NCBI GenBank assembly: GCA_008636045.1
Contig: SNRW01000006.1
Coordinates: forward strand, 1 to 50,188
Reading direction: 5' to 3'
Length of the DNA: 50,188 nt
Source: Streblomastix strix
Taxonomy: Eukaryota
Shown: piece by piece, positions 1 through 34,000 of the stretch
Position numbering within the stretch: position 1 is the stretch's first letter
Layout of the letters: each line of letters opens with the position of its first letter
The notes under the pieces: generated by a model
Told to the model about the DNA's origin: nothing
The model's database searches: none
The model's input: the letters and a program-made list of their open reading frames with translations, nothing else
Translations under genes and position numbers: made by a program

Positions 1-2
1 GA

Positions 3-2186
3 ATTATTTCTGAGGTTCTTGGAGTCTCTACATAACAAGTTTATTCTGCAGCTCGTGCACATTGCTTTGGACTCAAATGGATCACAAAGGGCTAGGTTGG
101 ACATGCGTTGCTTCTTTCAGAATCTGGAGAATAAGAAATTTGTATAAATATTCGCAAAATGATGGCAATAAACAATGCTCCTGGTTCAGATAAGATAAGG
201 GAGATGATTGATGAATAAAGACACATCGAATAAAAAATGGCTATTGAACGAGCTTATGCCATGGGTATGTACTCACTTGGTGACAATTTTGACAAATTTA
301 TTGAGCCTGCTTCTGATTCATACGTCTATGGACTTCTTTCGACGAATAATTTGACATTGGCATAACCTTCTCGACTTACTACTGATAGAAGTGACGCAGG
401 TACTCAAAGTAACATATAGTACTACTTCAAGGAAACCTACACAGAAGATATAGCTAAAATTTATCGAGCGATAGCCATTGGTAATGAAGTTAATCTTGAT
501 TTTGATATTGAATGTCTAGTTTGCAAGGAAGTTGGTGCAAAACGTGCTCCTGCTACAACTAAAGAGAATGCTCCAGGGCACATATCTATAGTTATAACAA
601 TTATGGCTGATGGTCCTTCTCCACCTCCATTTTTCATACTTGGTGGTATTCTGAATGTGCCTAAATATCTCCAGGTATTGATAGAATAAACAGGAGTTGG
701 AATTGTAGCAAACGGATCAAGATGGATGACAAAGGACGTTATGAGAATTTTTGCACGATTTTTAAGAGATTGGGTTAGAAAAATGAGAAAATTGGGACAT
801 TTTAAGAAAAATGAATAAATTCTCTTTTTTATGGACGCATATACTTCAAGAGATGATTTAGAAGCAGTGATTACTCTTGCATGGTAACGAATTACATTAT
901 TAACTTTGCCAGCAGCAATTACTCACATTATTCAGCATGTTGATAGAGTTATATCTCGTGAATTCAGAAGATGTTTCAGAAAGTTACTTCGTAGGTTTGC
1001 TGAACATGCACGCAATGAAATAATTGGTGGCAAGCTTTCAACAGCTACTAAGAAGGAATTGATTGTTTAAGCAGCTTATGACGCCTGTTAACAGTCGTGT
1101 GTCGCAACAAATCGATGGACGGCGTTTTACTCAACAGGTCTATGGCCTAGATCATCTTAAAAAGCCTGCTAATCGAGATATGTAATCGACGATTCTGCGG
1201 CACCACGTCATCAAGAAGGCAGAAAAACATCAAGAAAAACTGCAAGTGCAAGAAATTTGACTAAAGAGCTATGCCCAGACAAAATCAAAAGAAAACGAAG
1301 TCCTTAAGAAGTTCAAAATGGAAATAAAATTAGAAGACTTAATTCAGAAGAATCACGTAGCTAAGAACGTGTTTCAAAATAATTACAAGAAGAAAAAAAT
1401 AATGATGTTGATTCAGCTGAATGGGAAGATCTTGGCAATGAAAGCAGCGAGGAATACTTTGAAACAAAATTAGGCAAATCTGCAAAGAATAGGCGCGATT
1501 ACGCTTATTTTCCAACTTAAGAAAAAATAATAACACGCTCCGGAGGCGAGCAAAGAAAATGTAACGATTTTGTTGAAGAAAATTCCATTCTGGGATAAAT
1601 CTCTGCTCAAGAATTGATAAAATCCAAGAAAACAGCAAAATAAAGTGGAAAAGCAATAACTGAATCTACAAAATCTGAAAAAGATGCAGTTTCAGAACAA
1701 AGCACGATTTTTAAGGACAATAACTAAGAAAAAGAGAAATCAGGCAAGTTTGAATCTTTCAAACAAAAAATCTCAATAACATTAACTTTAGAAGAGATGA
1801 AATTGGAGCTTTCTGGATTAGAAAGATCTATAATTAATAATAGAGAGAATGGGAATTGTTACTTCATGGCTGTGAGTCACTAACTGTATGGAACAAACAA
1901 GCTGCATCGATAAATAAGAGTTATGGCTGTAAAGGAGCTAATTGAAAATAAAGAGAAATATCAAGAAGAATTTGATGATAGCGAATCATTGAAAGAATAT
2001 GCAGACAAAATGATTTGTGATGGTGAATTTGCTGACGCCAGAATCAACCTACCAATGTGTTAATCTCAAAAAGTGAATCTAAGAATCTATCTTGGTGAAA
2101 ATCACTTTGAAACTTTCAACATAAATGCTCAGAAATGGGTCGAAATAGCATATGTGGACAGAATCCACTATGTAAGCGTTGTCTGA
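3..2186 (+). CDS. Pogo/Tigger-type DDE_1 transposase with C-terminal OTU-like cysteine protease domain (5'-truncated by the window)
   Basis: Uninterrupted frame-3 ORF with TAA/TAG=Gln, ending at TGA 2184-2186. DDE_1 motifs are HISIVITIMADGPSPPPFFIL, NGSRWMTKDV, ILFFMDAYTSR, LPAAITHIIQHVD and AFYSTGLWP. A charged linker follows, then OTU motifs NGNCYFMAVSHQLYG (Cys codon 1857-1859) and IAYVDRIHYVSV (His codon 2166-2168). Confidence 0.88.
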
Positions 2187-2599: not shown

Positions 2600-4760
2600 T
2601 CCTCTTTTAAAATCCATTTATTGGAGTACAGGACCACTAAAATTGATCAGACCAAATGAGTGAAAATGCGACGAAACTCGAGAGAAACAAGTTCTTGGGA
2701 AAGGACAAAGAGAATACAGTAGAACTCGGTTAATTCGTACGCCGTTTAATTCGTACCCCCGCTTAATTCGTATGTTTTTTTTGATATATAATTAGAGAAA
2801 AAGATATTTTTTGGAAAAATATTTCAAAATTAAATAGGAAATACGAATTAAATTTAATTCAGATTCACATTTTCAGAAAAAGTCACCCTGCGAATTAACC
2901 GAATTCTACTGTATAGGACTTAAACTCAATTGGAAAGAGATTACTGGTAATTATTGGTCATAATGATCAGGAAGTTGAGGTAAAAACTCAGCGATTCACA
3001 GTTCTCGCAGAATATGCATGTGGCTGCAGAGACAGTATTATTTTTTGGTGATGTTCGTAAAACAACACGTTAGATACTTACTATTCAAGATGCCTCCAGA
3101 ATTATAAATGGCATAACGCAGCAGAGACTAGTAGTTTCATTAGTCATAAATCAATTTAAAGATATTTAAAACAAAATACTTTGCTATAAGAGGTATTAGG
3201 CGAGCAATCAAAATAGGCCAAAAAATCTGCAAAAAACAACAAATATCCTAGCTTAAACAAATAAATTACTGAATCTAAACTAATATTCAACTTATAAGTA
3301 TTTTTTTCGCCTAAAATAGTCCTTTTTGCGTAACAATAACTTTTCTTCCCTTAGCAACTAACTCTTTATAACTTGTATCATTAACTATTCTCTCAGATTT
3401 AATAGTAACCTCAGAGCCTTCTGCCTTTGTTAAATTCAATCAACTAGTAAAATGCATCTACATAATCGCAGTCTAATCTTTATCGATAATAACTAACTGC
3501 TCAATGAATCGAAGCAGATCTGGAGAAGACTCTGCTGAGGTTCTGTGAGAAAAAAAATGATGAAAAGGACAAACTGTTCGAATGAAGCTCATTTTTCATT
3601 TCAAATAGAGAAGAAAATCCCGTAGACTACAATATTCTCTTGGATTAAGAAGATTTTAGTCTCTCATTACATTTTTTATAATTTATTAAATAATTGCAAG
3701 ATGAAATAAAACCAGTATTGTAATATTAACTCAAGATATTAAGGTTTATAATCTAACATTTTTAATAAAACGTGCTGATTGTAGATCTAGAAAAATCTTG
3801 GATTATAGATGGATGAATATAATAAACAGACTCAGATCTTTAAAAGTAAGTAGTTAGAAAGAACTTAAACATCTGTTACTACAAAGTGACTTTACAGCTA
3901 CTGTAAATCTGAAAGATGCATTCCATCATATCAGCGTTTCTCATACTTTCCACCCTATTTTCGGGTTTTCTTTCCAAAATTGAAGCTATGATTACGATTG
4001 CCTCACATACTGTTGGCTTAATAGCTCCTTTATTCACAAAAAATCTTTTCAATCGTGATTAAAGATATTATCAGAAGATTAGAAGTTATAATCTACGATA
4101 ATTAAAGAGAAAATCAGTATAGATAATAATTGACTTCCATTAGTTCAAAAAAAAGTTGGAAATAATATTATATCTTATGAGCCTAAGTTGGAGATTTTCA
4201 CCAACTAAATATAGCCTCACGCATAGCTGAAAATTCAAATGTCTCGGATATGAATGGAATATATATACAATTAAAATAACAATTTTTCATCAATAGAAAA
4301 AATATTGAGGACTAAATAGAAATTATGGATCGAAATATCAAAATAGAAGCATAGAATAAAAGTTTGAGATTTTGCATCATTAATATGGGAGTTAAACTTC
4401 CTCAAGCTCCAATTTATTCAAAAGTCCCAATAAATTAATACCTTAAAAACATTTAAGAGTAAAACAATAACTAAGTAGTTCTGATGCTGCCAAGTTTAAC
4501 TAAATAGGGTAATTTTCCTTAAACCATATATTTTTTGAATATTCATTCCAATTCTTCAATAAATAAATGCCAACAATCTCCTCTTTTAAACGGAAAACTC
4601 CAAAGTGGAATAATGTCTGAAACATTGAAAACATACAAGAGTCTTTATTCAATTTGCAAAGATAAACTTCCAGTTACTAGGGACTCTGAGCATATGGTTA
4701 TTTACGAAACACATATTGAGAATTCATAATAGTAAGGCAAATGCTTAGAGTAAAATGGCT
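2600..4760 (+). pseudogene. Decayed retrotransposon, DIRS-like reverse transcriptase region
   Basis: Frameshifted RT motifs at about 3740-4030: KVYNLTFLIKRADCRSRKILDYRWMN and TVNLKDAFHHISVSHTFHPIFGFSFQ, matching the DIRS-type DLKDAFxHI motif. Many indels and TGA stops. Boundaries are approximate and no tyrosine recombinase was seen. Confidence 0.7.
2717..2911. mobile_element. 195-bp pogo/Tc1-mariner-type MITE
   Basis: 21-bp TIRs CAGTAGAACTCGGTTAATTCG (2717-2737) and CGAATTAACCGAATTCTACTG (2891-2911), one mismatch, flanked by TA on both sides. Three TTAATTCGTA copies lie at the left end. Confidence 0.93.
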
Positions 4761-5603
4761 CTTCGCAGTAACATGCTGAACGTATAGCAGCAGAACAGCG
4801 TTAACGTGCCCAATAACGATATAGAATGCAACGCTAAAACTTCCGTGTTTATGCAAATGATTTTCAATTACTCTTGATGCTTCATTTTAAAAATACTGCT
4901 ATAAATAATATGCAAGATCTACTTTAAATCATTGATACAATTGAACTTAATAACATAATGTAAGCTATTAAATTTTGATTAAATGTTTATTTTTGCATTC
5001 TTGAGTTTGTTAGTATTGTGATTAAAGTATAATTAATGAGTAATTAAAGTTTAGATTAACGTTGACTTATGAGTGATTAATGTAAGGATCGATGTTGATT
5101 GATGAGTGAATAATATATGATTAATGTGTGTTTAATGTTAGTATGCAAGAGATGTATCGAAAAGAGGTAAATTATCCATAAATATCGAGTGGTTCGAGTT
5201 AGAAAATGTATTACATTTCGAATATGCTTGAGCTATAGAGATTCACATTAAATTCTCTAAGTGCATCGAGTGCATTGAGTGTATTGAGTAAGTAAACGGC
5301 TATCTAATTTGGAGGACAGTTTTCCATTTGGACAGTTAATTCTACATTGGATATTCCCGTCTATTATCTCACAGCGCTAGCACATATATCAAATTTACAA
5401 TGTTATTGTCTGCTACTGTTCTGTCAACTTAATTGAGAATTCTCTGACCCAATGCACTAGTTTATTTTGATTCATTTCTCCACAACTCCTTAATTCGACA
5501 CTTTCATAATGAAAACATTTATCTCTGCATGGAACTCAACACCAATGATTACATGAACGTTTCATTTGTCATTGAATCATTCATTTACAAAAATAAATAT
5601 CAA

Positions 5604-5915
5604 TCATATATTTTCATATTAAACATTTAATTTGACATCAACTTTTTTCAAATAATATGTTGATTTAACAGCTGGTTTATCATTCTTAGTTAAAAGTTTT
5701 CTATCTAGCTTATTAGACATTAATATAGAAAATTCATTTATTTGCATATTTCTTCGTTAAAAATTATTTATTTATAAGAATATTCTTCCTTTTATGAATT
5801 CAGTTTCAAAGTTTTTTATAATTCAATCTAGAAATTGATTACTATACTAAAGGTACTATGATCTTTAATCACGAGAATCAAATGGATTATCAAATTATAT
5901 CTTGCGTTGTTTCAT
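5604..5915 (-). pseudogene. Small element-borne ORF (~103 codons) of unknown function, one internal TGA
   Basis: Reads MKQRKIQFDNPFDSRD...VDVKLNVQYENI* in code 6 and is preceded by the conserved upstream motif at 5950-6060. Confidence 0.4.
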
Positions 5916-6084
5916 TTATATTAAACTAAATATAAAACATTTAATTGTAAAACTGTCCAGCTATTTTACTGGTCGACATCTTTTGGGTTAATGTCTAAAC
6001 CCAAAGCGCTCAATGCACTCGATGCATTAGTTCATTTCAATCAATTTCTCCACGATTCTAGTGCAAAAATAAATTCTATCAATA

Positions 6085-6500
6085 TCAAGCATATTCTATT
6101 CATTTTTTGCTTATTCAATAAATTATTCTTTTTTAGCGTCTTCTTTAATATCCGCATCTAACATACTTTCATAAATTGGTATCATTTCTACTTTCATTTT
6201 ATAGATAAATTTACGTACTCTGCCAACCTATTTCTATGTTCCTTCACATATATTTTTGATCATTAACTAATAATTCTTTAACTTCATATCTTATCGTTTC
6301 CAACCTTCAATAATATTGCATGTAACTCAATCTCTAAATGATTTGAAATGACTGATAATTGCATCATCAACAGGTGATATTGACGCTCTTATTATATCTT
6401 TCCTCATTTATGTCATTGGTATATCTTTTGAATTAAATTATGAAATATCTCTAGTCAAAAAGAATGTGAATAAGTAATTATAAAATCATCATCGAAGCTA
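6085..6500 (-). pseudogene. C-terminal part of the interrupted primase-helicase gene
   Basis: Reads SFDDDF/YNYLFTFFLTRDISQFNSKDIPMTQMRKDIIRASISPVD..., continuing directly from ...YFIILCNS at 13732. It contains frameshifts and an internal TGA, and the last frame ends at TGA 6085-6087. Confidence 0.8.
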
Positions 6501-6714
6501 AATAATATATGTTGACTGTACCACAGACTACTAATTCTGCCATGATATTTGAAACAATATTCTCTGCGCCAAATAACAATAGCAATTAAGCGAAATTCAT
6601 CAATGTAATATATAAAAGATATGGACAATTTTAAACAAATTTCAACTATATTGACGATATAAATGCAACCTATAACAAAATTAACACAATTCATCTTCAA
6701 AAATAGCAAAATTA

Positions 6715-9700
6715 TCACTCAATTATATAATGATCAACACTAATCCCATACACAAATGGAGTATAATATCCGTAAATTAAAACAACTATCTTATTATGAG
6801 TTCCTGTGAGCACTGATTTTTTCATATTAATCGTAGACATTACCTCCATTTTCATCTATAAATTATTAATTGTCACATTGATGTTACACCCATCATTTAA
6901 ACATTTAATATGGTCATTGGTTGTTATATCTGCCTTCACTTCACTTACACCTTTCATCCTATTCACTAATGAAACTATGTTATCATTTTATTCATTTTCT
7001 TTGTATAGATTATAACATTTAGGTGCAATACAGACAAAATTTTCACCCTATGATTCAATTGTAATACCCATTAATTTCTTCTCTTCAGCAACAGTACAAT
7101 CATTCCATGGAAGCCACTCTTTATACTGTTAGTCAAAGAACCCCTAATCTTTAATCACATACTTCAATCCATATTTATAGCATTCAATTTTTGATCCCGC
7201 AATAGCTAAATACATTTAATCAGTATCCATATTACAGAAGTGAACCCTATCCATATCAATACATTTATAGAGGAAGTTATATACAAAATTGAGATACCAG
7301 AATTTGTTATTGTCTAGTTTAAATACAGATTCTTGAAGAGGCATATTATACTTAAATTATCTAGGTGATTCATTAACCATATACTATGCTTCTTCAATAA
7401 CTTCATCATCAGAATTACATATATGGGTATTTCCAATCATAAACAACCTACAACTTTTTTTAATTTTAAAAAATTTAAATTAAATTTATAAACAAAAATT
7501 GGAGTTGCAAACATTTAGATTTGCATCCTCTGAAAAATTAAGCTAAAAATATATTCATGTTTTTTCAACAGCAGAAAACTAATCATATTATTAAATTTTT
7601 ATTACAAACATTTTTTTAAATTTTTTCAGGTAGATTGAAAGACAAAAACTACATTTTCAGCGGTACACATTCGTGAAAACCGTTTTTTATTAATTTTTCG
7701 ATTTTTCCGCCCATTTCATGCTTAATTACTATTTTTTTTTTAAAATTATTTATTTAAAATTATTTTTTAAAAATTGGACCAATAAAAATTATAATTACAG
7801 CTATGCTTATTTGCGAAATTTCAAATTAAATTTTTTTGTAAAAAAAATATACGTGTTCGATTTTTGAGCTAAATTAAATTGAGTAATTATAAAATAAATA
7901 CATTAATGTTTATTATATTAAATTACAATAATTGATGAATTTGAAATGGTGATTTGAATAAAAAAACGAAAAAACAAAAATTTTCTGTTTTTATGAACGC
8001 ATGCCGCTAGAAACGTCGTAATTGTCCATCAATGTATCTGAAAAAATTTTAAAATATATTTTTAATAAAAAATAAATAATAATATTACTTCTATAATGAC
8101 AAAAAAATAAAATCACAATTTTTGCTCGTTTTTATAGCGGAGGCAAATCGAAAAATTTGCAACTCCAGCTATTGTTCAAAAAATTATTTAAATATTTTTA
8201 AATAAAAAAAATAAAAAGTTATCCTACTGAATGGACACTTCCATATCATCACTAAATTTCCTTGTTGCTTTATGACACTAATTTATTTATTTGATTGAAG
8301 CATATCGAGCATTATTTAATGATATTTTATCAAATTTAAGATTATTTTATCCTTCACCTCCGAAAGCACTATTAAGTATTTACCTGTAATATAGAGATTT
8401 TGTGTCATTAGGTTGATTAATTGCTTCTTTTCTCCTACTCATCTTTGTACATGTAAATGATTCAAATCCTAAATGTTTGTCAAATAGAGCAATTGAATCA
8501 ATTTCATCAATAATAAAGTTACAATAGTCAATTAATAACCATAAAATACAGCTAGTGAAGCTCATGAATTGATTGTGTGTTGTTTACAATGATGTTAGTT
8601 TTGTAGTAGGTTTATCAACAGTTAATCCCTATGACAGCATCATACTGTACATAAATTCTCCTATCTATTCAAATGAATTATTATGCGTTAATTTTCTCCA
8701 TATTGGTGCTAAATTTATGTGTGAGTTAATATGTTTTCTCATCAATGTGACTTATAATTTTGACACATAATAGTTATCCTTTATCTGTATATCTATCAGC
8801 ACTCATAATTATATCTCTTGTTTTCTATTTTGAATTATTAGAGGTACATTTGAAATAATTAGTCAATCCACCTGCTTGATTTATTCGATGATTTGTATAA
8901 GGGTTATTTTTGTTGAATATACCACTAAATACACTTGGATAGAGAGAGTTTAAATCTAAATCAAGTACACGAGTAATTGTATGTAGGGTGTCATAAGATG
9001 TTATTGTTTTAGTTACATGATTATATCTAAATTTATTAATGTGTCTAATTCCTTTTAAATTAAATTAATGATACACATTAGATAAGCCACCTTATATACG
9101 TTTTTTTAGCATATTATATACAGATTCATTATTAATTGTCATATGTAGATGTTCATGGATAGAATATTTCATTAATTGATTTTTAATTTATTAATATCAT
9201 TATCTTTATCAGCCTTAACGGTACTACATATTTAACAAGCTAGTTAACAGTTCTATTTTGTGTGACCAATTGAATTATTAATTCCGTCTAATATATGTTT
9301 GATTTCTTTAACGAATTTGTAACGACATAGATGAGATGTTTCACTAGTTACTTTATCTCTAATACAATCAATATCATCTTCTGTAACATAATTAGTTGTA
9401 TCTTTCTTAGCATACTCATCTTGATTGATATATCTTTTGACTTTGTTATTCCACCAATATTAAGTAATTTCGAATTATTCAAACCTATTAACTATATTAT
9501 AACTTGCATTGATACCGCCCTTATCATAACAGTACTTGTATTTAATTTAACTAACAATTTGAGCTAGTGATATACAACCTAACATATCAACTCTCTCTTT
9601 CTACGTAATTTGAATTAGATGATTGATAGAGTTGATCATAAAAGTAATATCCTTGATATTGTAATGCTTTAGATAATCCTATCTATATGTGAAATTGATT

Positions 9701-12685
9701 GAATCATTAATAAACTATTAATAATCTTCATCAATAATATTCATATTATTAAGTTTGTCATAGAAATCTTCCTTAACAAACGGTGTTGCTTATCCATGTA
9801 CTAATTAATAGTTATCATTTTTGAATGATATATGTGGAAATAAACTTTTTGTTAATTTTATACCTTTAGTACCAAATTTCTCAACGAATTACTTTAATGT
9901 GTTGTTTGATGGGAGAAATGATAATATTTCAATAAACCTCAAGTCAAAATCGTAATCGTAATGTGATACAATTGTCTATTTAGATTATGTTGTTGATTCC
10001 ATATATTAAATTCTAGTCTTATTTTTAATTAAGTATATGAGTAATAGATTCATATCAAACTTCTTAGAATTGTATCCTATAACTGATACTTGTGGCTTAT
10101 ATGGTTCATAACGTTTATCTTCAATTGCAACATCAGGTATATTTGATTGATTGACTTCATTAACTTTAATAGCAACTTCAAACAATTAACTTATCCATTA
10201 TTCAATAAAATCAGAGCCATTTCGTAAATCAAAATATAATGTAGTAATAATACCATTAACTGTTGCTGCTGATGCTACAGACAGAGGCTCTAATTAAGCT
10301 ATCACATTGTCTACATCAATTATGTTCTCTACTGTTTCAAAAATCAGATGTAATGTAATTAAGTGCAGGAGTTAATAATTCTTATTAACCTATTGCAATT
10401 AATTTCTATTGTAGTATATTCTTTGATATATCTGAATAATACGGTTTTGGTAAATGATCTAATTTAACTTATTTAGTTGTTTATGGACCCTATTAATACT
10501 TCAAGTGTCTAGCTAACTCTCTCTTATAATTCTGATTCGTTGTATTAAATATCATCTAACAGTTGAGGGGACACAGCTTTCCATTAATTACTTTATCAAT
10601 ATCGCTAATGTACATTGCATGGATTTCATCAACAAATGATAATGGAACTAATAGAACATTAACAGTTAGAAAGTCCTTAGCACTTATGCCGCCAGCTTTG
10701 CCGGTATCAATAATGTGCTCTTCGAATTTACTGAATTATTCAGGTTGATTTTATCTTGTTTTCAACATCTTATCATCGCATATGTATGCTATTGTATTCA
10801 TCTTGAATATTTATTGAAATCTTTCAAGATCTCTAACATAATTGAACTCTTTATATGATTCGAGTAGCTATTTATTAGCTTTATTTAATCTACTACTTGG
10901 ATTGATATCATTGAATTAGAGAAATAATTTAATAGTATCACTAACTCTAGTTCTTGTTTAATCAATCTCATGGTGCAATGCAAATGAAACAACTGAAAAC
11001 CAACATATATTATATTCACAATCAATGCCCATAGTGGTACCTTCATTATTGAAGCGCAAACATATTTTATCCATTTTAGTCCCTAATGGCAGTCTATAAA
11101 CAACAATCAAAAACGAAAATAGGGCTTCCTTTAATGTTGCTGAATCTTCATGAGTAATGTCTTAATAATCCGATAGTAAATCAATAGCTTTCTATTTGAA
11201 ATAGTCATTAGTCTATTTATCACTAACTACAATAATAGGTAAAGTCTTATAACTATTATCAGCATTTGATCTGGTGTGTGAATAATGACATTCATCTAAT
11301 ATTTGTTAATGCATATAAACTTATTACTTTTTCTAGTATATAGATTTAAAACTAATATATTCTTTATAGGGTTTAGCTTTCTCTAATTCATATACTTAGT
11401 CGATTTTATTTTTCAATTGCTATAAGTCAAAGAAATGATTATAATAGTATTACATATATGATTCTTTATTTTCGATACCTTTTGACAATAATAATGATGC
11501 AGGCAACCCATCTATACTAACTTCATTCTTTTCTTAATATCTCTTGCGTGCCTGAGCTAGTATTGCATAATAATCTGATAAGTTCAATAGTGTGAAGATA
11601 ACGAATGCCTTCTAATTAAGTTCTCTATTTTTATTTAATTATTCTGTCTTTGTAATACTTTGTTCACTAAAATGATCCTTATGAAATCCGAAATATTCAT
11701 CATTAAGTTTTTTCACTCTTTAATTAAATTCTTTAGCACCTAATTTTACTTCTAGGTATTTGAGAAGTTTAAATGGTTTTTCACCCTATCGTTAATATCT
11801 TGAATTGATGAGTATCTGTTATAACTGTTCATAGAGATTATGTCTCTTCCATTTGCTCTTAATCACATTAGCTGCATCAATTGATTATTGGAATTGTTAT
11901 TATGCTAAGTCTTTTCGATAATTCTTTTTGACTAATACGGCTGCTTTATTCTTTTTCTCCAATTTTTCCTACAATTCTTGAATCTCTTATTGATGAAACT
12001 ATTCTTACTGATCTAATTCTTATTAATGTTTCAATTATTATTCAGCTAATAACTGTTAATAATTTGAATTAATTTACTTTGACTCTTGAATTTATTCACC
12101 CAAATCAAATTCTTCTCATAATAAATCAATTATTGTTTGTAATGTCTCTTATTGCTAATATATCTTAATAGTGATTTATTGTTAAGCTTATAGTAACTAT
12201 TATATACGCTATCTTCGATCACATTCTTCAAATTTTTATTTGTAATCAGTTCTGTACTTATCAGGATTGAATATACCATCATCTGAATTGTCAGACCAGT
12301 TCAATTCGTTTATGATAGCATTTATGCCGCCATCAGAGTTTGCATCATCAATATTTGTAGTTAATTATGGTTATTGTTAACCATTATTCAACTATTAATA
12401 CTATTTATCAACTACTTCCGTTATTGATAATAATTTTGGTTATTGTTATTGATCAATTTATTCTAATTATTAATACTGTTATTTGTTTCTTTCAGCTACA
12501 ATTTGATTTACAAATACAACAATTTCAGTTGTAATTGAAATTTAACCTGGATAATGTAAACGAAGTAGTTCATTAGTTTACATGTTTCATAAATCAACTG
12601 CTGTGTGATTAGGTAAATATGCAACTTATAACTAATTTAGTAAATTTTAAATCTATTATTTACTCGTTATGTATTTTTCTGCCAT
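6715..12685 (-). pseudogene. Protein-primed family B DNA polymerase (Polinton/Maverick-like) with long N-terminal extension, decayed
   Basis: Exonuclease motifs xFETVE (~10280) and IGYNSKKFDMN (~10070). Polymerase motif A VLDLDLNSLYPS (~8935-8970), motif B YRQILNSAFGG (~8360-8390), motif C HFCNMDTD (~7220-7245) and late CIAPKCY. ATG at 12685, TGA at 6715-6717. It carries frameshifts, internal TGAs and an insertion at 7452-8220. Confidence 0.9.
7452..8220. mobile_element. 769-bp non-coding long-TIR (foldback/Mutator-like) element inserted in the PolB gene
   Basis: Imperfect inverted arms of about 240 bp, e.g. GGAGTTGCAAA at 7501 versus TTTGCAACTCC at 8156. Ends are AACTTTTT...AAAAAGTT, flanked by AACCTAC and ATCCTAC (possible 7-bp TSD). 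It lies between PolB motifs B and C. Confidence 0.85.
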
Positions 12686-13731
12686 TTGTATGTGGAAAAA
12701 AAAGTCAATTTATTACTGTATCATTTTTCTGCATTTTTTATTTTTAATAAATGACATAAGAATTGAAGTTGTTATTAATGCAAATCCCATCAATCAAATC
12801 TCCTAAAGAAATGCGTTAATTTGTAAAAATGAATCATGAATTGTTATCCTATGTAACAGCATTCACTTTAAATAGATATATGACAATACCATAATTTACA
12901 TTCCTTCGAAGACATGGCTAGGTTCATGTATATTGTGACCGTAAACGTAGATCTAGATAACCTGAATTATTGCCTTAAAATATCAATTTATCTGAGCTCA
13001 AACCAATCGTTTCTGCTGGCTTTTCGAAGAAAATTGACGATATAAACAGAGCATAGCTTATCGACAAGCTTGATTTGCAAGCTATAAATTAGTTAAATGA
13101 TTAATCTGATAGTATTAACGAAAATTTTGATTGATTATATATTATTTTTATCTATAATATTTTTAATTTTTGATACATAAAGTATATACGTATTTGAAAT
13201 TATTTGAAAAACTTTTGTAATTTATTTCTTAATATTTTAACACTCAATCCTACAGCACTTTGCTAATTAATATATATATTTATGATGTATGTAGTGATAT
13301 TGACTATACATAGAAGTAATTGATATAATTAGTTTATTAGTCAGTTAAAAATTAATAGTTAAAATTGTTAAATTTTTTCATAAATTTTGAAAATAAGACA
13401 TTTAATTCTTAAATAATTTTGAATATTTTTGAATATTTTTGATTAATTTTTAAATAATAATTCATATCATTATTTGAAGATGAATGTATCTTAGATATAT
13501 GATTAGCATTTATGCTGCCAACAGAGTTGATAGAATTATCCACATCATATACGCATCACATTGATGAATAGTACTCATTTGTTCCATAGGAATTTGCTTA
13601 GAATTGTCCATATCATTTACACATTACACTGATGAATTTCGCTGAGTTGTTATTGTAATTTGGCTTGGAGATTATGGTTACGAATAGCACGGCAGAATTA
13701 ATGCACAATGGTACTGTCCATATTTATTATT

Positions 13732-16292
13732 AAACTATTGCACAAGATAATGAAATACGTTAAATCTCCTCGATAAGTCGAATTACGTTTGCATACACCG
13801 TAACGTCTATCGTTATTCTCAATCTTCGATGGATAGATATTATTTGTAACAATTATTATATTAACTACATTTTCAACTTCATGCTTAGGAATATATTTCT
13901 CATTAGTCACAAATGAACTTTCAGTAATTATTGATTTTAATGCATCCATATTTGACATTCTTGATTAACCAAAATTTTTCATTTCATTCGCAATTGCTAG
14001 CAACTTATTCTCGAAAGTAGTATTGAACTTATCTACAAAGTCATCGATATTATTGATATTTTTAGACGAATATCCTGCTAATAATTAATATAGAACATTA
14101 GTAAAACATTCTTACCATTATCATATATTACTTATAATGCAATAGTTGTTTCAATCTTCTTTCCAACATTCTGCACAATAAAGGCAAATCAATTCAATTA
14201 ATATTCATAATCCAATTCATCATTTGCCGAGATTGTATCTTTCACTAACGCTAGGAACTATTCAACTTTTGTTTAATTCTCTTTATCTAATTGAATATAT
14301 TTAAATCCTTAGAATACTTTTAACATTTCTAAATTATCAATAATGAATTTTATATCTAATTTCTCGAATAATGAATTATACTATTCTAATGCATCAATTA
14401 CAGTTATTTTCTTTTCCCATCTTATCAAAGTTTAATTGAGCATAATTATTCATAAATCACTGATTTAATTTTATAAATTATCATATTTTTTGCAATGAGA
14501 TAATTGTATTTTTTAATGATGTAGCATCATCCATTTTTGCAAGGTATAATTCTTAATATTTTCAATAAATCTTATGCAAGGAACTTTAATTTATTCTAAT
14601 ATTATCCATTTAATTCTTTGTTTGATACATCCGTTAATGTGAAAGGATCTATCAGTTCAAGCCTATTCTTCTCAATTGATTTCACAACTGCTCCAATTAT
14701 CTATTATTATTTTTGATTTATATGTCTTAATGATCAAATGTTTAAGTGTGGATTCATAGAAATCATTATTATGTAATTTAATGTTTTTCGTTGATATTCA
14801 TGCATTAGCTTTATTGTAATAACGTCCTTTTCTTTCGCTCCAATGTTCACCTGCTTTAGCTGCTAAATTATTATTTGAATAAAAAGTTGGATAAGCTAAT
14901 TCTTTGTAATTTGCATCTCCTGCTTGTTCTAAACAATTAAGTCCCAAGAAAAAAGATAGTAAGCTAATTTCACGCTCTAATGTGTTTGCATCACTGTGAA
15001 TCGTTAATCATTTTAACCTTTAAATACGTACATCGGCAATTTCAATAGACATTACATCAAGAGTGCAATCTTTATTAGTTATACTAAATTCCTTATCTTT
15101 AACTGTTAATTCAAGGTTTCATTTACAAAGAATATCATATAATGAAGTTGGATGTTTTGAAATAAACCAATCAATAAGTTTCCAATAATGAAGTGTCTCT
15201 TTCTTTTGAACTTTTTTATCCATGATTCTCACGTTGCTATTAGGTAGAACAACTCTATTTTCATCTAATTTACCATTTTTATGTGTGTACATTTATGCAA
15301 ATATATCAATCTCTAAGTGATCTCCATATGTTACTACTTTTTCATTTTTGTTTGAAGAAAATATGTATCCATTTCTGTTACAATATGCATGTATTCCACC
15401 AATTGCAGTTTATACTAATCCAACATTTGATGGAAGCATATTATTGATTAAATTTTAATGAATTTTCTTTTTCTCTTCTTCGTTTAATTTACCAGCATGA
15501 TCATTATCAAAATCAATAATACATAAATCTTTATATCCGCATAAACATAAATCAATTGCATGTCCAATTAAAAGGTTATTTTTCAGTTTATCATCAGCAA
15601 ATTTCCAATATTCATATAAATCAACAACTTCTTCTTCAATTCTTTCTTTAATTTTTTTAAGAATTATTCTTACTCGCGAGCTGCATCAAATGTATCACTA
15701 ATTATCTTGCCGAATTATTCATATTTACTCATTAGATTTTCACGATCTTCTTACATCAATTTCAAACAAGCTATTTTAACTGCAATTCTTTTCCTATCTT
15801 CTTCCGTAGCTTGTTTTTTGATGATTTCATTAGCTTTTCTATCAAATTCTTCTTTCATTTTCTACTTTGATTCTGATTCATATTCTTATCTCTATAATTT
15901 TTCTAATCTATTTGCTTCTTATTATTTCGCAGCTCTTGATTCCGAATCTCCTTCAGAATTACATAGTTCATCAATAATTTTCTCAGGTCTATCTTTATTT
16001 GTTCAATTATAAGTTCATTAGTGATTTCATTAATAGGTGATGTGTCTACAACTGCATTATCGATTTCACTTATCCATTCATTAGATTTTTCATTATCTTT
16101 TTCATTATCTTTGTTAATCATTTATTCCATCAATGCTTTAGCTTTCTCATTCATTTTTGATTTAAGATTATGTGATCTCTTTGCTCCTTTCGCAATTGTT
16201 AAATGTTTATCGTTTATTGACTAGTTCAAGATTGATTCAAAGAATTTACTATCTTTAATTTCATTTTCCAGTTATATCATTTTGGTTTACAT
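13732..16292 (-). pseudogene. Prim-Pol (AEP) primase fused to SF3/D5-like helicase, N-terminal part, decayed
   Basis: Coiled-coil N-terminus, then AEP motifs LCIIDFDND, VQTAIGGIHAY, EIDIF and RVVLPNS. The helicase has a degenerate Walker A (..NGKN.. at ~14110), Walker B LAIANEM, motif C NIIIVTNN and DRRY. Several frameshifts. Confidence 0.82.
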
Positions 16293-18588
16293 TTAAAATG
16301 AAAGGTTAATTGATAAAAATAAATTTATTTATATTAATCAATTCATTAATCACTTCACTAAATTCAAAAATTGCCATCTGTCCTACTATCCGACATCTTT
16401 TAGGCTAACCGCATGACTCAATGCACCCAACCCACCCAAAGTACTGGATTATTTGAATCAATTTCTTCATAACTGGTGATTATAGTTTCAAATCTACTCG
16501 AACCACTTTAGACACATAAAGAATTATCCACATTTGCATATATCTCTGGCACATTAAAATTGACGTGAACGTCAATCATTTCATTATATAAGTTATCAAT
16601 CATGTCATCAGTTTTATCGAAAAACACACTTAGACCATCGACCAGCTATTCAAAGACACTTATTCAGTTTCCTTAGTAAAACTTAATTTGCCACCTCCAA
16701 TTACCACCTAGACCTCTTTATGGGAGTTTATGTGTAAGCGTGACAGTATAACAGCGTGACAAATAATTGATCTATAAATTTTTCATCATTTACCCACTCC
16801 TATTATATATGCTTATTAGTGTCTCAATCAGCAGATGATAGGTTAGATTGCAAAAATAAGTTTATTATCAACTTCCATCATTAATCACTTTGTTAATTTC
16901 AAGCGCTAATCACGATTGTAACAAACATATGTTTGTTCTATGAGTAATTTGTTAAAAATTGCACTGTCTAAATGATGAAAATGACATCGTTTTGAACTAA
17001 GACCAATCACAAGATTGATTATTATAATTTTTGTTATTTATTGTTGATCCCATTGCTCAATCATATTGTTTAAAAATTCATCTTCAACAACTGTTTGCAC
17101 TTATCTATTCATTTATTTATATCATTAATCTCCACATCCTAACTAATTATTTTGTCCATTCAAATTATCTCTTAAATCTAATATCAAACAATAACATACA
17201 ACATTCAAGAATCCCTACAATTCATGCCACAAATTCCATAACTGCTGAACATCAATATTGGCGTATTTGTAGCTTAGGCAAATGAGGTTATTTTCTATGT
17301 TAGGGCAGAGCTCTTTTTAACTAGCTTTTTATAAGAATTATTAAAAATGCCATTATGACTTAAAAAATAATTGAATAATTAAATATAATTATTAATAAAT
17401 ACTTTTTTAAAAACATTTTTAAAATCATTTAGTGTTCATATACCAATTTTTACGTTAGCGCTAACAGTTTGTAGAAGGTGAAAGAATCAATTCGCACATC
17501 GCAATTAAAAAGAGATAAGTTAAATTAATGTAATTATACAAATAAATAGTCCAATTAACCGGAGTCTAATAACAAAGATTCGAATGATATGATAAGAAAA
17601 TGTAATTCATTAATAAACCTCAAAAATATTTTTCACAAATAAGAACAAAATATGAAACAATCGATTCATATCAGCAACATTGCAAAAAAATTTAAAAATT
17701 TAAAATTCATTTTATATTAAATTAAACATTATTTTTAAATTCTTCAATTTTTCCAAAATATTTAATTTTTCATAATTTCTATTTACATTAATTTCGAATT
17801 ATTCGGAGCAATTAGTACACATTTTTGAGCTACACGAGTATAAGCTATTATCAAAATTTCCGAAGTGGATAAATGAATGAAAAAACAGCTAAAAATATAT
17901 TAATAGATACAATTATTTTTTTTATTGTTAGTAATTAATTAATTCTTTCCCTTACAATTTTTCGTAACGTTTAGTTTTTAGATGATTTGAAACGTGTATG
18001 GTTAAATGAATATAATCCTGGTAATAAGAAAACACTCATAAATTAAATGTGTCCTCCAGAGAAACCTGATAAAATATATTTAATGACTGATAGATCAAAA
18101 TTAATAGTCGATAATATATATAAATTATTTCAAAAATATTAACTTTCTCAAAATATCCATAAAATGTTCAATCTAAATTATTATTCACTATTTTTCTATC
18201 AAAAAATGCTCTAATAAGTAAAATTTAATAACAATTGAGCAAATCTAGTGTCGATTTATAAATTAAAAATAATTTTGTTTGAAAATTTTTAAAATTGAAA
18301 AAAAAATAAGATATCTATACTATTTGATGTAATTAATATGAAAAACAATAATTATTAATTATAAAATAAATAAATTTATAATTATTAATCATTTAAAGAT
18401 TATCAATTTTCATAAATATTTAAAATTTGGAACAATATTTTCACGCAGCTCACTATATTATTTGTAATTTTGCTAAGGATTTATCATTGTATTTATATTT
18501 TTTAACTATATTTTATTATTTAACAAACATTTCTTTTATCCATCTGCCTATTTTATTTTTCTTTCTTTCTTCATAACTTATCTCTAAA

Positions 18589-21174: not shown

Positions 21175-21728
21175 ATAAGAAGAAATGAAAATAGACACAA
21201 TCTATATTCTAATAAATGAATAAAATAACTCTGATAATCTCATTTAAATATTTTTTTGAATAGGTAATTTATTATCATACAGTATCTATTTCTCAACAAT
21301 TTTGAGCTTAAAGTATATCGGAAATTTCACTTTTTAGTAAGCTATATATCATTGAACATTAATAATAAATAATTTTAGTATTTTTTTATCTAAGGAATCA
21401 GCGTATGGGAATCGCAATTGAGTTCGTTTCCACCCTTACGCACTTCCTATCCTCATTGTTTTCTTGCTTATATTATATATATTAACATAACCAATTGATT
21501 TTCAACCGAATTTATCAAAAATACACGAAGAAGACGGAATGAAACACAAATTTCGCATTTATTCTCATAATCGGCCTCACACATATCCAATTACTAATTC
21601 ATATGATTTAATATTAATTAATGAAGAAATATGATAATTAATCATCCTATACAAAATTGAACGAACTATAAACTGCACGTTGAATCTACAATTAACATTT
21701 TTATTTTTGTTTTTGCTTGTAGAATTCA

Positions 21729-22587
21729 ATGGCTTATCCAGGCAGGATATTTCTCAACATTATTAGAGCGAAAGATATTGTGTCATCAGATCTGATAGGG
21801 AAGGTGGATCCTTTCATTAAGATCATCTTCGGGAAAGTGGAAAAGAAGACCAAGGTAAAATAATTTCAATTTTATTATTTGTCTTTAAATTTTTATTCTT
21901 TTAGAAAGTGAAGAATAATGCTAACCCAGAATTTAATGAAGAATTTCTATTCGATTACGCTCCACAGGCAAACATGCATGTTATAAGTCTTGAAGTCTGG
22001 GATTATGACATGATTGGAAGCAATGAGAAGCTTGGATTTGTGCAGATTCCAGTATGTTTACAACATTTTAGTGTATTATAAACATTTTTTTTAGTTTGAG
22101 GAATTTATGAACAATAAACACACAAAGAAATACCCATTTTCTACTAAGAAAGGAAAATTCCAGGGAGAAGTAGAAGTATAGCTCTACTATGAAGCACCAA
22201 CTGCCCCTGCTGGAGCTACTGGAATTGCAGGATCAGCATAAACAACTGCATTCTCAGCATAACCAGGATCTGCGTATCCACCACCTCCAGGACCTTCTAG
22301 TGGATACATACCTCCTCCAGCACCTGGATATGCACCTCCTCCAGCATATGGAGCAGCTCCTGGATACGCACCACCTGCACCTGGATACGCACCACCTGCC
22401 CCAGGATATGCACCTCCACCTGGATATGCACCACCTGCACCTGGATATGGAGCACCTCCTCCTGGGTATATATGAATAATTTTATTTAAATTTTAACTCA
22501 AAATTTTTTAATTTATTTGATTTCTTTAATTAATTTTATATATTTATTATTTAAATACTAAGATATTATCCACCACCGTAATATTGA
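21729..22587 (+). CDS. C2-domain protein with Pro/Gly/Tyr/Ala-rich tail, paralog 1
   Basis: MAYPGRIFLNIIRAKDIVSSDLIGKVDPFIKI..NPEFNEEF..LEVWDYDMIGSNEKLG, with acidic Ca-ligand positions present and PAPGYA repeats. Introns at 21855-21904, 22052-22094 and 22466-22562. Ends GYYPPPQY-TGA. Confidence 0.92.
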
Positions 22588-23280
22588 TCTTCATATGATG
22601 ATATCAACTAGGTAAAAGGGTTGTTGTTGAAGAGCCAAACTCATTTTCAATCAGTTTTTTCTTCTTATTTTCTTCTTATTTTCATCAAACTATTTAATCA
22701 AATTGAAACTAAAAAAGTAAAAAGGTATTAATTAATTGCACAAGTATTGATTAATTGAAACCGTATTAAAATAAATATTGTTTTACAACCCTCTACCTTG
22801 CATTTTCCTGTATTTAACAAAAAGAAAATTTTCATCTATAGTTTTTAGTCATTCTCTAGATATTTTACACCGCGAAGTGCTCAGAATGATACAACATAAT
22901 ATAATAATGTCTAATTACAAACCAGAAAATTCTTAAGACTAAATTACAGTGAATACTAATATTTATTTTAAAAGACGATTTTCTCATTGAGCAACAAATA
23001 ATTATTCATAGATATAAGATTAATATTTTAAATAATTATATTTATGTTATAAAATTTCCAATCTTCTTTTAAACTCACCAAACTCAGTGTAAGGGAATGA
23101 TTAGTTTTATTTTAAAAAAAATAAATAAAATACCTGAATTTATTCATTAAAATGAATGTTTATTAATAAATTATTTTATATCTTATTGTTATCTCTATAT
23201 TTTCCAAATTGAACGAACTGTAAAATGCACGCTGAATCTACAATTAACATTTTTATTTTTATTTCTGTTTGTAGAATTCA

Positions 23281-24197
23281 ATGGCTTATCCAGGCAGGAT
23301 ATTCCTCAACGTCATAAGAGCCACTAATGTTATATCGGCAGATCTGATAGGGAAGGTGGATCCTTTCATTAAGATCATCTTCGGGAAGGTGGAAAAGAAG
23401 ACCAAGGTAAAATAATTTCAATTTTATTATTTGTCTTTAAATTTTTATTCTTTTAGACAGTAAAAAACAACCAAAATCCCATATTCAACGAACGTTTGCC
23501 ACAATATTATGATATTTCCTGTAAATATTAAAATTATTATTTTTCAGAGTTTGTTTTCGACTACGCTCCACAATCAAAAATGCATGTTATAATGCTAGAA
23601 GTCTGGGACTATGATATGATTGGAAGCAATGAGAAGCTTGGATTTGTGCAGATTCCAGTTTGCTTTCATTATTTATTTATATATTGTTAATATACTTCTT
23701 CAGTTTGAGGAATTTCTGAACAACAAGCACACAAAGAAATACCCATTATCAACAATCAAAGGCAAATTTGCAGGAGAGATTGAAGTAGATGTTTTCTATG
23801 AAGCACCAACAGCCCCTGCTGGAGCAGGATAAGCGTTAAGTGCTCCAGGATATGCCCCTCAACCTTCTGCTTCATACAGCGCTATGCCTGATGCTCCTCC
23901 TTAAGGATATGCACCTCCTCCAGCTTATGGAGCACCCCCAGGTTATGGTGCCCCATAAGGATATGCGCCTCCTCCAGCATATGGAGCACCACCTGCTTAT
24001 GGAGCTGCACCTGGATATGCACCACCTGCACCTGGATATGCACCACCTGCACCTGGATATGGAGCACCTCCTCCTGGGTATATATGAATATTTTTTTAAA
24101 TTTTGTCTCAAAATTTTTTAATTTATTTGGTTTCTTTAATTAATTTTATTTATTTATTATTTAAATACTAAGATATTATCCACCACCGTAATATTGA
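23281..24197 (+). CDS. C2-domain protein with Pro/Gly/Tyr/Ala-rich tail, paralog 2 (tandem duplicate)
   Basis: Same architecture as paralog 1. Introns at 23407-23456, 23494-23547 (extra), 23658-23703 and 24078-24172. Confidence 0.92.
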
Positions 24198-24771
24198 TCT
24201 TCATATGATGATATCAACTAGGTAAAAGGGTTGTTGTTGAAGAGCCAAATTCATATTCAATCACTACATCATAATCTTGTCAAATTTTTCTTTATTTAGT
24301 CTAGCTTTAATTAAAAAAAATGAACTTATATATATGAGTTATTAATATGTTATAAATATCAATAAAATATTGCTCTTCATCATACAAAACATTGTAAAAT
24401 TTCTTTTATAGTTTTTAGTTATTCCTAAGTATTTGTACTGAAAATTGAACATTTTAATGCAATTCCATAAAAAATCTTAAAAAATAAAATCTTTAAAACA
24501 TTCGTTACTTTTTTACTATGAACTTCAAATAATTATTTTTTAAATGTAATTTTCTCATTCAATAACTAATAATTTTAAAGTTAAATATTATATTACTAAA
24601 AATTCAAGTAACACCTCTTCGTTATTATTTCAATTATATCATTTAACTGACAAATTAATGTATAAATTGATGTTCAAATAAATTTATTTTTTTGGAAAAA
24701 AATGAATGAAATATCGAAAGATTATAGTTATTTTTATTTTTTATTCAGATTAATCCAAGTGAAATCTCAAG

Positions 24772-31000: not shown

Positions 31001-34000
31001 AATAAGAGTAATTTAGAACGAAGAGAAGAAGAAAGAAGAAGACCAAGTTAAAAGGAAAGATGAAATAATTAAGAAGGATAAAAAAGGAGATAAAAAAGAT
31101 AAATAATACATTGAATAATCAGATCAAGGAAATTAAAATCACGAATTGTTATCTTCTGCATCATCCTCATCATTATAGTCATATTAACAATTATTATAAT
31201 AATACAACTCTAATGATATACTGAATTTTATTATTTTATAGTAATAAGGAAGAAGTGTGGATTAATTAATATATCATCAATGCTTATAAATAATATGCAA
31301 TTATTATTCTTAAATATATGTTTTAAATGAAGATAATTTAAAAGAAGAATTGTTAAGAATAAAAATGTAAATATAAAATGGGAATTCACCTACATCTTTT
31401 TCTTTAATAGCAATTAATATCTTTGATGGATATGAAAGATAAAATAATGATGCTCTAAATAAGTAATAATAATAATACATGTAATATGAAATATAATAAA
31501 ATTAGGAACAATAATAATCCCCATCTAAATAACTTTCATTTTCTCCATAAAGATCTAATCATTCAATATAATAATAATAATAAATGCAACCATAACAACA
31601 AATATAAATATAACCACTTGCTTCTCTTGAAATTGATATTAAATAATAATTGTAAGTCTAGAATTAAAACTCGAATAAATAATTAGAATTATTAAATAAA
31701 TTAAAAGTATAAAAAGACAAAAGAATTGGGGAAATGATTGATTAAATTTAAATTATTGACGTTGTTATAAGAAGTTTGGATAGATTGCATAGAAGTATTA
31801 GTATATGGGTTGCATATTTGTATTAGAACTATATTTATGATGAATAAATAGGCGAAAGGGAGAAATTGAAGAAGACTGAATAAAATTAATCATCTAAATA
31901 ATTTTCTAATATTTCTCATTATCTTGAATCACACCTTCCTTTTCTTCATTCATTATCTAAATAGCATTCTTCTATTTAATAATATTATAATAACACAGTA
32001 TAATAAATAAATAAATAAATTTATAATAAGATAAATTATTCATAATAACATTTATAATCTAATTTAAATTATCATCAATTTGGTTGTTTTGAATATTAAA
32101 CTCATTTTAACATAATTAATGTTCTTATTCAATATATTGTAAGTTATTTTTGCTAAGCAAAAGGATATTAATATAATGTTTATAATAATAGATCAAAATT
32201 TATTGATAATAATTTGAACTGTACTAAAAATGAGATTTAATAACAAATAATTAGTAAGAGATAATTTGGAATATTTTATAGAAAATAAATAAAAATTAAT
32301 GAAATTATGAATGAAAATGAAATAATTTCTGGAAATAAAGATGAAGAATAGGAATTATTAAATATATAAGATATTAATAATAAATAGAATAATTATTAGA
32401 TTATGCGAACAACTTCCCCTTTGAAATAAAACTCTTCACCATCATCAATATCATATAGTTAATAATAATAATAATAATAATCTTAATAATTATAATCAAA
32501 TATATTAAATTCTAGTCATTCAGTTTCTTTTTCTAAAATTCCATTATTATTTTCTCATTCATTTCAATTTCCTTCATAATCTTCTTCCTTGTATTATTCA
32601 TTCCCTTCTCCTAATATGTTTATTTAAGATAATTACTTGTTAGTTAANNNNNNNNNNNNNNNNNNNNNNNNNNNNNNNNNNNNNNNNNNNNNNNNNNNNN
32701 NNNNNNNNNNNNNNNNNNNNNNNNNNNNNNNNNNNNNNNNNNNNNNNCAGTTTCTTTTTCTAAAATTCCATTATTATTTTCTCATTCATTTCAATTTCCT
32801 TCATAATCTTCTTCCTTGTATTATTCATTCCCTTCTCCTAATATGTTTATTTAAGATAATTACTTGTTAGTTAATATTTGGAACGTGTGTGTAAGAGGCT
32901 CTTTTACAAAATAAGAATAGATTTAAGGGTTAGAAACATTTGAAGCTATTGTTGATTAATTTTCTTATAATTAATCGTTTATTTTACATTAATAATAAAA
33001 AACTTAAGAAATGGAATTAAAGGAGAATAAAAATTAATCAACTTAGCCTTCTCACATGCATAAACATAAACATGAATAATAATAATATTCACAGCAATAA
33101 TCATAAACCATTAAAAAATAAATGTATAATGGTTCATTTAATGAAGATATTCTATAATAATTTAGAGAAATTTGCTAATCATTTATGAAATTTCCACCTT
33201 TCATTTAATTTACTGATTATTTTATAAAATCAACAAGTTCTTTATTATCAGAAACATTATAAAATGATATTAATTATTAAGAATTTCCTCAATCATCATT
33301 TTAATTTTCATCATAATAATAATAGTTTGTCGCATCAATTCCACATAATCTAGAATTTATCTTAAGAATATTCTCAATAATACATATTTAATAAATTTAA
33401 GAGCATAATTATTCTTTATTTATATCTTTATTTACGATAATTAACAAAAACAGAATAATATAAAATGAAAATGAAAATGGAATAGATTGTTTTAATAATG
33501 AAAGTGATGATGGAGATGAATATGAATATGAAAAAGAAGAAAGTGAAAATAGAAGAATAAATAAACAAAGAAGTGATATATTAAACAGACAATGGAAGTG
33601 GAATATTAATGGAGATGAAATAGTGAATGAAGAAGAGAATTTGAAATAATTATAATAAAGTAAATTAATTAATAATCTTCAAACGTTTGATGAAATAAAA
33701 AAGAAAGATAATCATTTAATAAATGGAACATTAATTAATTAAGATGAACAAAAATAATTATTTAATTAATAATAAGAAATATCAAATATTTTAATTGGTT
33801 ATAATAATATTTGGGAAGCTTGCATAAATTGGTTTATTGATGTTGAAGGAATAAAATAATAAATATTTAAATTTACTGAAAATTAGATTAAATAAATAAA
33901 AACATTATATAAATAATATTAAAATGAAATAAATGAAAAAAAGAATATGGAAAAAGAGAGCAAAAAAGATAAAAAAGAAGAAAACAAGAAAGAATAATTA

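Follow-up and report, generated by a model that had tools for sequence, protein, structure and literature searches.

Polintons, also called Mavericks, are elements of 15–25 kb that carry a family-B DNA polymerase (PolB) and terminal inverted repeats (TIRs), are flanked by a 6-bp target duplication and occur in many copies, as described in parts of two sources (PMC6431247, PMC8097293). A unit sharing these features was identified in the termite-gut oxymonad protist Streblomastix strix, in positions 1 to 50,188 of contig SNRW01000006.1 (assembly GCA_008636045.1), the whole stretch of DNA analyzed, henceforth referred to as the window. The S. strix PolB unit differs in that it measures 6.4 kb, in that no integrase, ATPase, protease or capsid gene was found in it, and in that its ends read AATAATA where the vertebrate Maverick ends given in those parts read (AG)3 or (AGT)2. 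It is nested in another virus-like element, whose primase-helicase gene it interrupts. The explanation favored here, with moderate confidence, is that a polymerase-only unit inserted into a multigene Polinton-like primase-helicase element by means of an integrase acting in trans, and that the inverted match flanking the locus is an internal repeat of that element.

Other described systems resemble the locus in part. A 2026 bioRxiv preprint on Polisuviricotina (10.64898/2026.10.13.758929) proposes, in its available portion, repeat-bracketed mobile replicase modules, including elements that carry only an archaeo-eukaryotic primase (AEP) replicase. These are similar to the present units in having their own repeats, in nested or tandem replicases and in genes joining AEP to a superfamily 3 (SF3) helicase without integration genes; however, the protein-primed PolB (pPolB) is there consistently paired with DDE integrases, whereas here it is integrase-less. 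Transpovirons are likewise small, capsid-less and dependent on other viruses, but the excerpted account (10.1101/2024.03.18.585575) describes them as giant-virus parasites with a pPolB-SF1 helicase fusion lacking an exonuclease. In S. strix the PolB has exonuclease motifs, the helicase is a separate gene of AEP-SF3 type rather than an SF1 fusion, and the units reside in the genome of a protist. In Drosophila Vesanto virus and the bidnaviruses, too, PolB is set apart from other genes on short units bounded by TIRs, although these are, in the part of PMC8363768 covered, single-stranded DNA segments with related termini that co-occur across samples, while the S. strix units are integrated.

Much of the mosaicism of Polinton-like viruses stems from replicase swapping, one of its main sources, and the existence of mobile replication modules has until now been proposed only tentatively. 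The PolB-only unit provides a concrete, testable case, being multicopy and integrase-less, with clean ends and empty sites, and inserted into a rival replicase gene. What is new is the form, an integrase-less module of pPolB alone, whereas repeat-bracketed mobile replicase modules are known as a proposal. In the literature covered, which mostly excluded subscription papers and preprint supplements, neither these S. strix units nor any Polinton-like virus that is both segmented and integrating was found described; Metamonada elements are left unclassified in the portion of 10.64898/2026.06.19.733378 covered.

The PolB unit and its insertion site

Coordinates of all features are collected in Table 1. 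The two PolB arms extend beyond the core TIR alignment to 203 identical positions in 309 columns (z 16.4), and the right arm contains an internal tandem duplication of ~66 nt (13531–13662). Homologs of the helicase align to ~13731 and pick up again at 6485 with zero codons lost, and the split falls exactly where the homologs read LCNS followed directly by F.EDFY. Empty sites were also observed: contigs mapped on 4300–7400 diverge at 6485 into uninterrupted helicase sequence (8 X1, 3 X2), all of them from one sample that is possibly the source of the window itself. A PolB gene model at another locus, P0139, reads through the same TIR; its match ends at base 13731 and unrelated sequence lies beyond, indicating a second insertion with the same terminus. 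Residues 1453–1695 of P0139 form an ORF (open reading frame) directly past the PolB terminus, with an RQKRHYGG stretch and no usable Atlas match.

The PolB family is multicopy, 33 of the 37 matches to a PolB fragment being named S. strix proteins, and contigs of 5,581–6,375 bp hold four PolB models that are nearly complete. Subtracting a later foldback insertion that resembles a miniature inverted-repeat transposable element (MITE), together with a single copy of the insertion's target site, leaves a unit of 6,409 bp. Because the unit combines a TIR, a 6-bp target duplication and empty sites, and because another copy ends at the same terminus, the polymerase is supported as a separately integrating, multicopy one-gene module. 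The first-pass annotation had proposed that replication genes may be spread over independently integrating segments; this is supported for PolB but not for the 4.3-kb helicase segment as it was drawn there. Uninterrupted helicase copies, which it had called for, are present among contigs and homologs, while a target-site duplication (TSD) at its proposed helicase-segment ends is not.

Table 1 Features of the PolB unit, the helicase element and the dispersed repeat (positions in the window).
Feature	Positions	Strand	Basis or remark
PolB-only mobile unit	6501..13731		7,231 bp; TIRs, target duplication, interrupted helicase, empty-site contigs
Left TSD copy, AAGCTA	6495..6500	+	5/6 bases as in right copy
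Right TSD copy, AAACTA	13732..13737	+	P0139 read-through homology ends at 13731
Left TIR of PolB unit	6501..6641	+	79.4% over 141 nt
Right TIR of PolB unit	13591..13731	-	partner of 6501–6641
Decayed family-B DNA polymerase gene	6715..12685	-	endonuclease VII/HNH insertion; likely protein-primed; 66–79% identity to P0134, five pieces
Block upstream of PolB, kept in another PolB copy	12850..12915	-	P0138 N-terminus, 77% over 22 codons
Foldback MITE-like insertion in PolB	7425..8242	.	ATAT duplication at 7421–7424 and 8243–8246
Decayed AEP-type primase/SF3 helicase gene, 5' part	13738..16292	-	PF19263 above cut-off; homologs
Same helicase gene, 3' part	6085..6494 (end approximate)	-	52–80% identity to homolog C-termini
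ORF-S, small ORF after helicase	5604..5915	-	one internal stop; P0128 tail matches at 5851 and 5624
ORF-L, second small conserved ORF, convergent with helicase	4755..4978	+	start inferred; outside left arm
Dispersed repeat copy A (proposed right arm)	16324..16610	+	alignment to copies B–D
Dispersed repeat copy B, directly after helicase stop	5911..6067	+	direct to A, z 12.0, 110/170 columns
Dispersed repeat copy C, weaker	5446..5630	+	direct to A, z 3.7, 1/100 shuffles
Dispersed repeat copy D (proposed left arm)	5096..5330	-	inverted to A, z 11.8, 153/248 columns

The PolB gene itself is broken by three frameshifts, in-frame stops and the 818-bp foldback element, and the PolB and helicase copies at this locus are fossils. 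PolB coding sequence accounts for ~5.2 of the 6.4 kb of the unit. The intact relative P0134 has 1,653 residues and matches a PHROG endonuclease VII profile (E 6e-8). Intact PolB relatives also contain motifs of the exonuclease and of the polymerase, and a Cys/His pair that is a candidate for a vOTU domain. Pfam scans of PolB and of the upstream frames tried detected no integrase, and capsid, ATPase and integrase genes were found in neither the PolB unit nor the helicase unit. The domain order corresponds to that given in the part of 10.1101/2024.03.18.585575 covered, and protein priming of the polymerase is suggested by this order, by the termini and by the relatives.

Two candidate features near the right end of the unit were discarded. 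A plus-strand ORF at 12790–13131 matched only itself among 2 candidates, and the similarity of 13143–13470 to 17589–17915 was within the AT-rich background. The foldback element at 7425–8242 has GG..CC ends and arms that are 66% alike.

The helicase element and the outer inverted match

The window is almost without long ORFs in the standard code and is opened by translation table 6, in which TAA and TAG encode Gln; the endogenous viruses of S. strix are described as using the host code in the portion of Bellas et al. covered (PMC10120064). The SF3 part of the helicase is supported by PF19263, PF05272, PHROG primases and PDB entry 6k9e, the family profile matching this PDB primase with E 3.6e-20. 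No profile matched the AEP part, which is assigned from the N-terminal motifs IDFD and T.HGG.H; with these motifs and the C-terminal SF3 part the gene has the AEP-SF3 architecture of NrS-1/D5-like primase-helicases. The family is multicopy, all 47 of 47 matches to a helicase fragment being named S. strix proteins, and no relatives were found in the metagenome or viral contig collections.

After removal of the PolB unit and one target copy, 4,294 bp remain between 5080 and 16610, in agreement with the ~4.3-kb remainder reported by the first-pass annotation. Its description of the contents, a Prim-Pol/SF3 gene and one small ORF, holds for the helicase and ORF-S, but a second small ORF, ORF-L, lies outside the proposed left arm. 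Gene models (149) were screened for extra segments, of which 42 were detected in 18 positive models. Three helicase models on different contigs, P0019, P0046 and P0093, have read-through tails that match 4766–4918 (for each, 0/100 shuffles across the entire block) but not the right flank; a fourth, P0026, also aligns there, though it scores lower. As this stretch follows the helicase in four other models, at least two small ORFs belong to the element and its left end lies beyond 5080. In two tails covering the ORF-L block, 6 of 10 differences fall on plus-strand third positions, indicating that ORF-L is likely a conserved small gene. Contig depth over the block, which is not a copy number, is of the same order as over the helicase, compared with 31 in the flank, and a single contig joins 4840–4975 to 5202–5357. 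The helicase unit therefore comprises at least three genes and at least 4.6 kb, with its left end outside repeat copy D; it extends at least 330 nt further left than the proposed arm, into ORF-L, with no right-side counterpart. A resemblance between helicase tails and the right flank, first seen by eye, failed the shuffle test.

The inverted match that had been taken for the termini of the helicase segment is real as an alignment. Positions 5080–5320 and the reverse complement of 16375–16610 align with a score of 87, compared with 31.8 ± 5.6 for dinucleotide shuffles (z 9.9), and 0 of 500 shuffles reach that score, so the significance of the match, on which the first-pass annotation had made its proposal depend, is upheld. 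The match, 5096–5289 against 16416–16602, is 63% identical over 199 columns. That the repeats are the remainder's own termini is not borne out: the sequence is present in four copies, A to D, the direct A–B alignment is as strong as the inverted A–D alignment, and no exact 6–8-bp direct repeat flanks 5080 and 16610. A TIR-bounded helicase segment of 4.3 kb is thus not established, because its arms are two of four dispersed copies and the unit extends past them. The outer match likely pairs two copies of a repeat that lies between genes inside the element, and not the ends of a segment.

Copies B, C and D each follow the end of a gene, which would fit a 3' signal. The outer arms are 62% identical and the PolB arms 79%, with similar protein decay, a comparison that fits internal repeats without being decisive. 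The outer parts of A, C and D were also considered as coding paralogs, which was not supported, as no frame preference was seen and the A/D block shows 0 synonymous and 8 non-synonymous differences.

Relation of the two units and competing explanations

Whether the two units are kin was assessed from their ends, from gene models and from contigs. The PolB arms do not align with repeats A–D at z above 2.5, and the PolB and helicase family profiles are unrelated. Five rare 7-mers are common to the PolB arms and the helicase-unit repeats, against 1.36 expected (P 0.034), and helicase model P0112 has a tail that resembles the right arm of the PolB unit (1/100 shuffles over the whole block) but not the left. 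Helicase contigs (n = 86) and PolB contigs (n = 59) share two sizes; among those of at least 9 kb (23 helicase, 21 PolB) the only shared size is 14,892 bp, at which two locus tags separate the P0139 PolB from an intact helicase. A helicase/PolB pair of equal size, 4,421 bp, was set aside, since the tags are four apart and probably derive from two contigs. Kinship of the PolB and helicase units is accordingly hinted at by these data, and linkage and independence are not discriminated because the locus-tag and contig samples are partial.

The absence of a significant alignment between the PolB arms and the helicase repeats is what would be expected of two unrelated elements, with a non-autonomous Polinton derivative landing by chance in an abundant, unconnected helicase element. 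Both families are indeed abundant, nested mobile DNA abounds in the window, and the single co-occurrence on long contigs is near chance. The shared short motifs, the PolB-arm-like sequence after a helicase and the second PolB copy near an intact helicase argue against coincidence, and this explanation is considered improbable.

The same shared motifs and the P0112 tail could point instead to a multipartite endogenous virus, in which PolB, primase-helicase, capsid/ATPase and integrase would occupy separate, co-packaged segments with related ends that integrate independently; this is the interpretation of the first-pass annotation, with wider limits for the helicase segment. In S. strix these would be separate linear DNAs sharing cis motifs, served by one trans-acting integrase and often landing in each other. 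The PolB unit comprises a single gene and has ends of its own, and one contig size in common among the long contigs is compatible with separate segments. The portion of PMC10120064 covered lists 820 capsid matches in S. strix, 0 of 11 capsid locus tags lie within 5 tags of helicase or PolB tags in a small sample inspected by eye, and segmented pPolB viruses with related TIRs are known from Vesanto virus, as the relevant part of PMC8363768 describes. Against it, the PolB arms and repeats A–D stay below z 2.5, the P0112 tail matches a single PolB arm, the proposed helicase-segment ends fail, the locus-tag samples are too sparse for linkage, and the nearest outside PolB relatives are monopartite. 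A multipartite virus is therefore regarded as unlikely, both in general form and as spelled out for S. strix; were capsid and integrase genes found to be equally modular, the system would be a segmented integrating double-stranded DNA virus.

The helicase genes could also be fragments of a larger capsid-encoding Polinton-like virus with an AEP-SF3 replicase, the present locus being truncated and PolB invading as a second replicase. Protist capsid loci usually carry pPolB or a primase-helicase plus an integrase (PMC10120064, in the part covered), repeat-bracketed second replicases are reported in such genomes in the available portion of 10.64898/2026.10.13.758929, and the ORF after the TIR in P0139, unlike anything found, could be viral. 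However, no capsid, ATPase or integrase gene related to two outside contigs, L001 and L002, was detected in the window, under ~5.5 kb is left between the flanking sequences, and no capsid tag adjoins a helicase tag in the small sample. Of the explanations weighed this appears the least probable. The two sources bear on a further claim as well. Polymerase and primase-helicase had been presumed normally to share one viral genome, a premise weakened because the portions covered describe pPolB and primase-helicase as alternative Polinton-like replicases.

The favored explanation, a polymerase-only unit in a multigene primase-helicase element, would proceed as follows. Most likely, a derivative with the polymerase alone split off from a Polinton-like virus lineage, retaining its ends, from which its own polymerase would copy it by protein priming. 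The PolB unit would then have been inserted by a DDE/rve integrase encoded elsewhere in the genome and acting in trans. At this locus it destroyed the primase-helicase gene of the multigene element, and the MITE later broke the polymerase gene. The order of events follows from the nesting. The trans-acting integrase is suggested by the 6-bp target duplication, as described for Mavericks in the part of PMC8097293 covered. The helicase element is best read as a related, multigene element.

Several observations weigh against this explanation. PolB has neither a Pfam PolB match nor a PDB match, and its structure model is poor (predicted local distance difference test score, pLDDT, 38). The PolB termini mapped number only two, one of them via a translated gene model, and the trans-acting integrase was not identified. 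The ends of the helicase unit were not located, the right flank being without mapped contigs. There, ACGCT-N(9-12)-ACGCT occurs once (16737–16757), inverted relative to a similar motif in ORF-L; this motif pair, chosen post hoc, is a weak hint of longer arms. The helicase and PolB two tags apart on contigs of equal size, 14,892 bp, also fit one larger virus. The left-block motif was absent from the viral contig and genome contig collections.

Outside relatives and other features of the window

The nearest outside PolBs are 29–41% identical and are encoded on 21–23-kb metagenomic contigs (L001, L002) that represent monopartite, multigene virus contigs. In the viral contig collection, neither the S. 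strix PolB nor P0081 had relatives. The ORFs of L001–L003 match the window in PolB only, and no relatives of the window's helicase were detected in the examined parts of L001 and L002. An A32 ATPase of L001 passes the Pfam cut-off, and L002 shares ATPase, capsid-like and protease-like genes; the L001 protease-like ORF is so called from a motif. A 657-residue L001 protein has viral Atlas neighbors, including a capsid cluster of nucleocytoplasmic large DNA virus (NCLDV) type at 0.96, although the structure model of this capsid candidate is poor (pLDDT 37.5) and the fold search was uninformative. No integrase was detected in L001 1–22062 or L002 1–16959. Rumen virophages without integrases are described in part of PMC4409740 and are set beside L001 and L002 for comparison.

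L001 contains six copies of a 100-nt intergenic repeat, found in either orientation; in this lineage, genes may therefore be flanked by inverted repeats that are not termini. L001 and L002 have a shuffled gene order and dispersed intergenic repeats of 100–110 nt, and three related PolB records lie on contigs of 21.9–22.1 kb.

Elsewhere in the window, a higher-GC ORF at 1–2186 (+) contains a DDE_1 transposase domain (E 6.9e-10); at its C-terminus, an OTU-like protease domain scores slightly below the cut-off. Broken frames at 3540–4700 (+) carry a reverse-transcriptase-like motif, LKDAFHH, which we take to be DIRS-like; a 92-residue piece of this region has no Pfam match. A tandem gene duplication with a spacing of ~1.6 kb and proline/glycine/tyrosine-rich repeats is present at 21654–24263. 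At 32521–32874, a 127-nt exact repeat flanks a 100-N gap (32648–32747) and is probably a scaffolding artefact.

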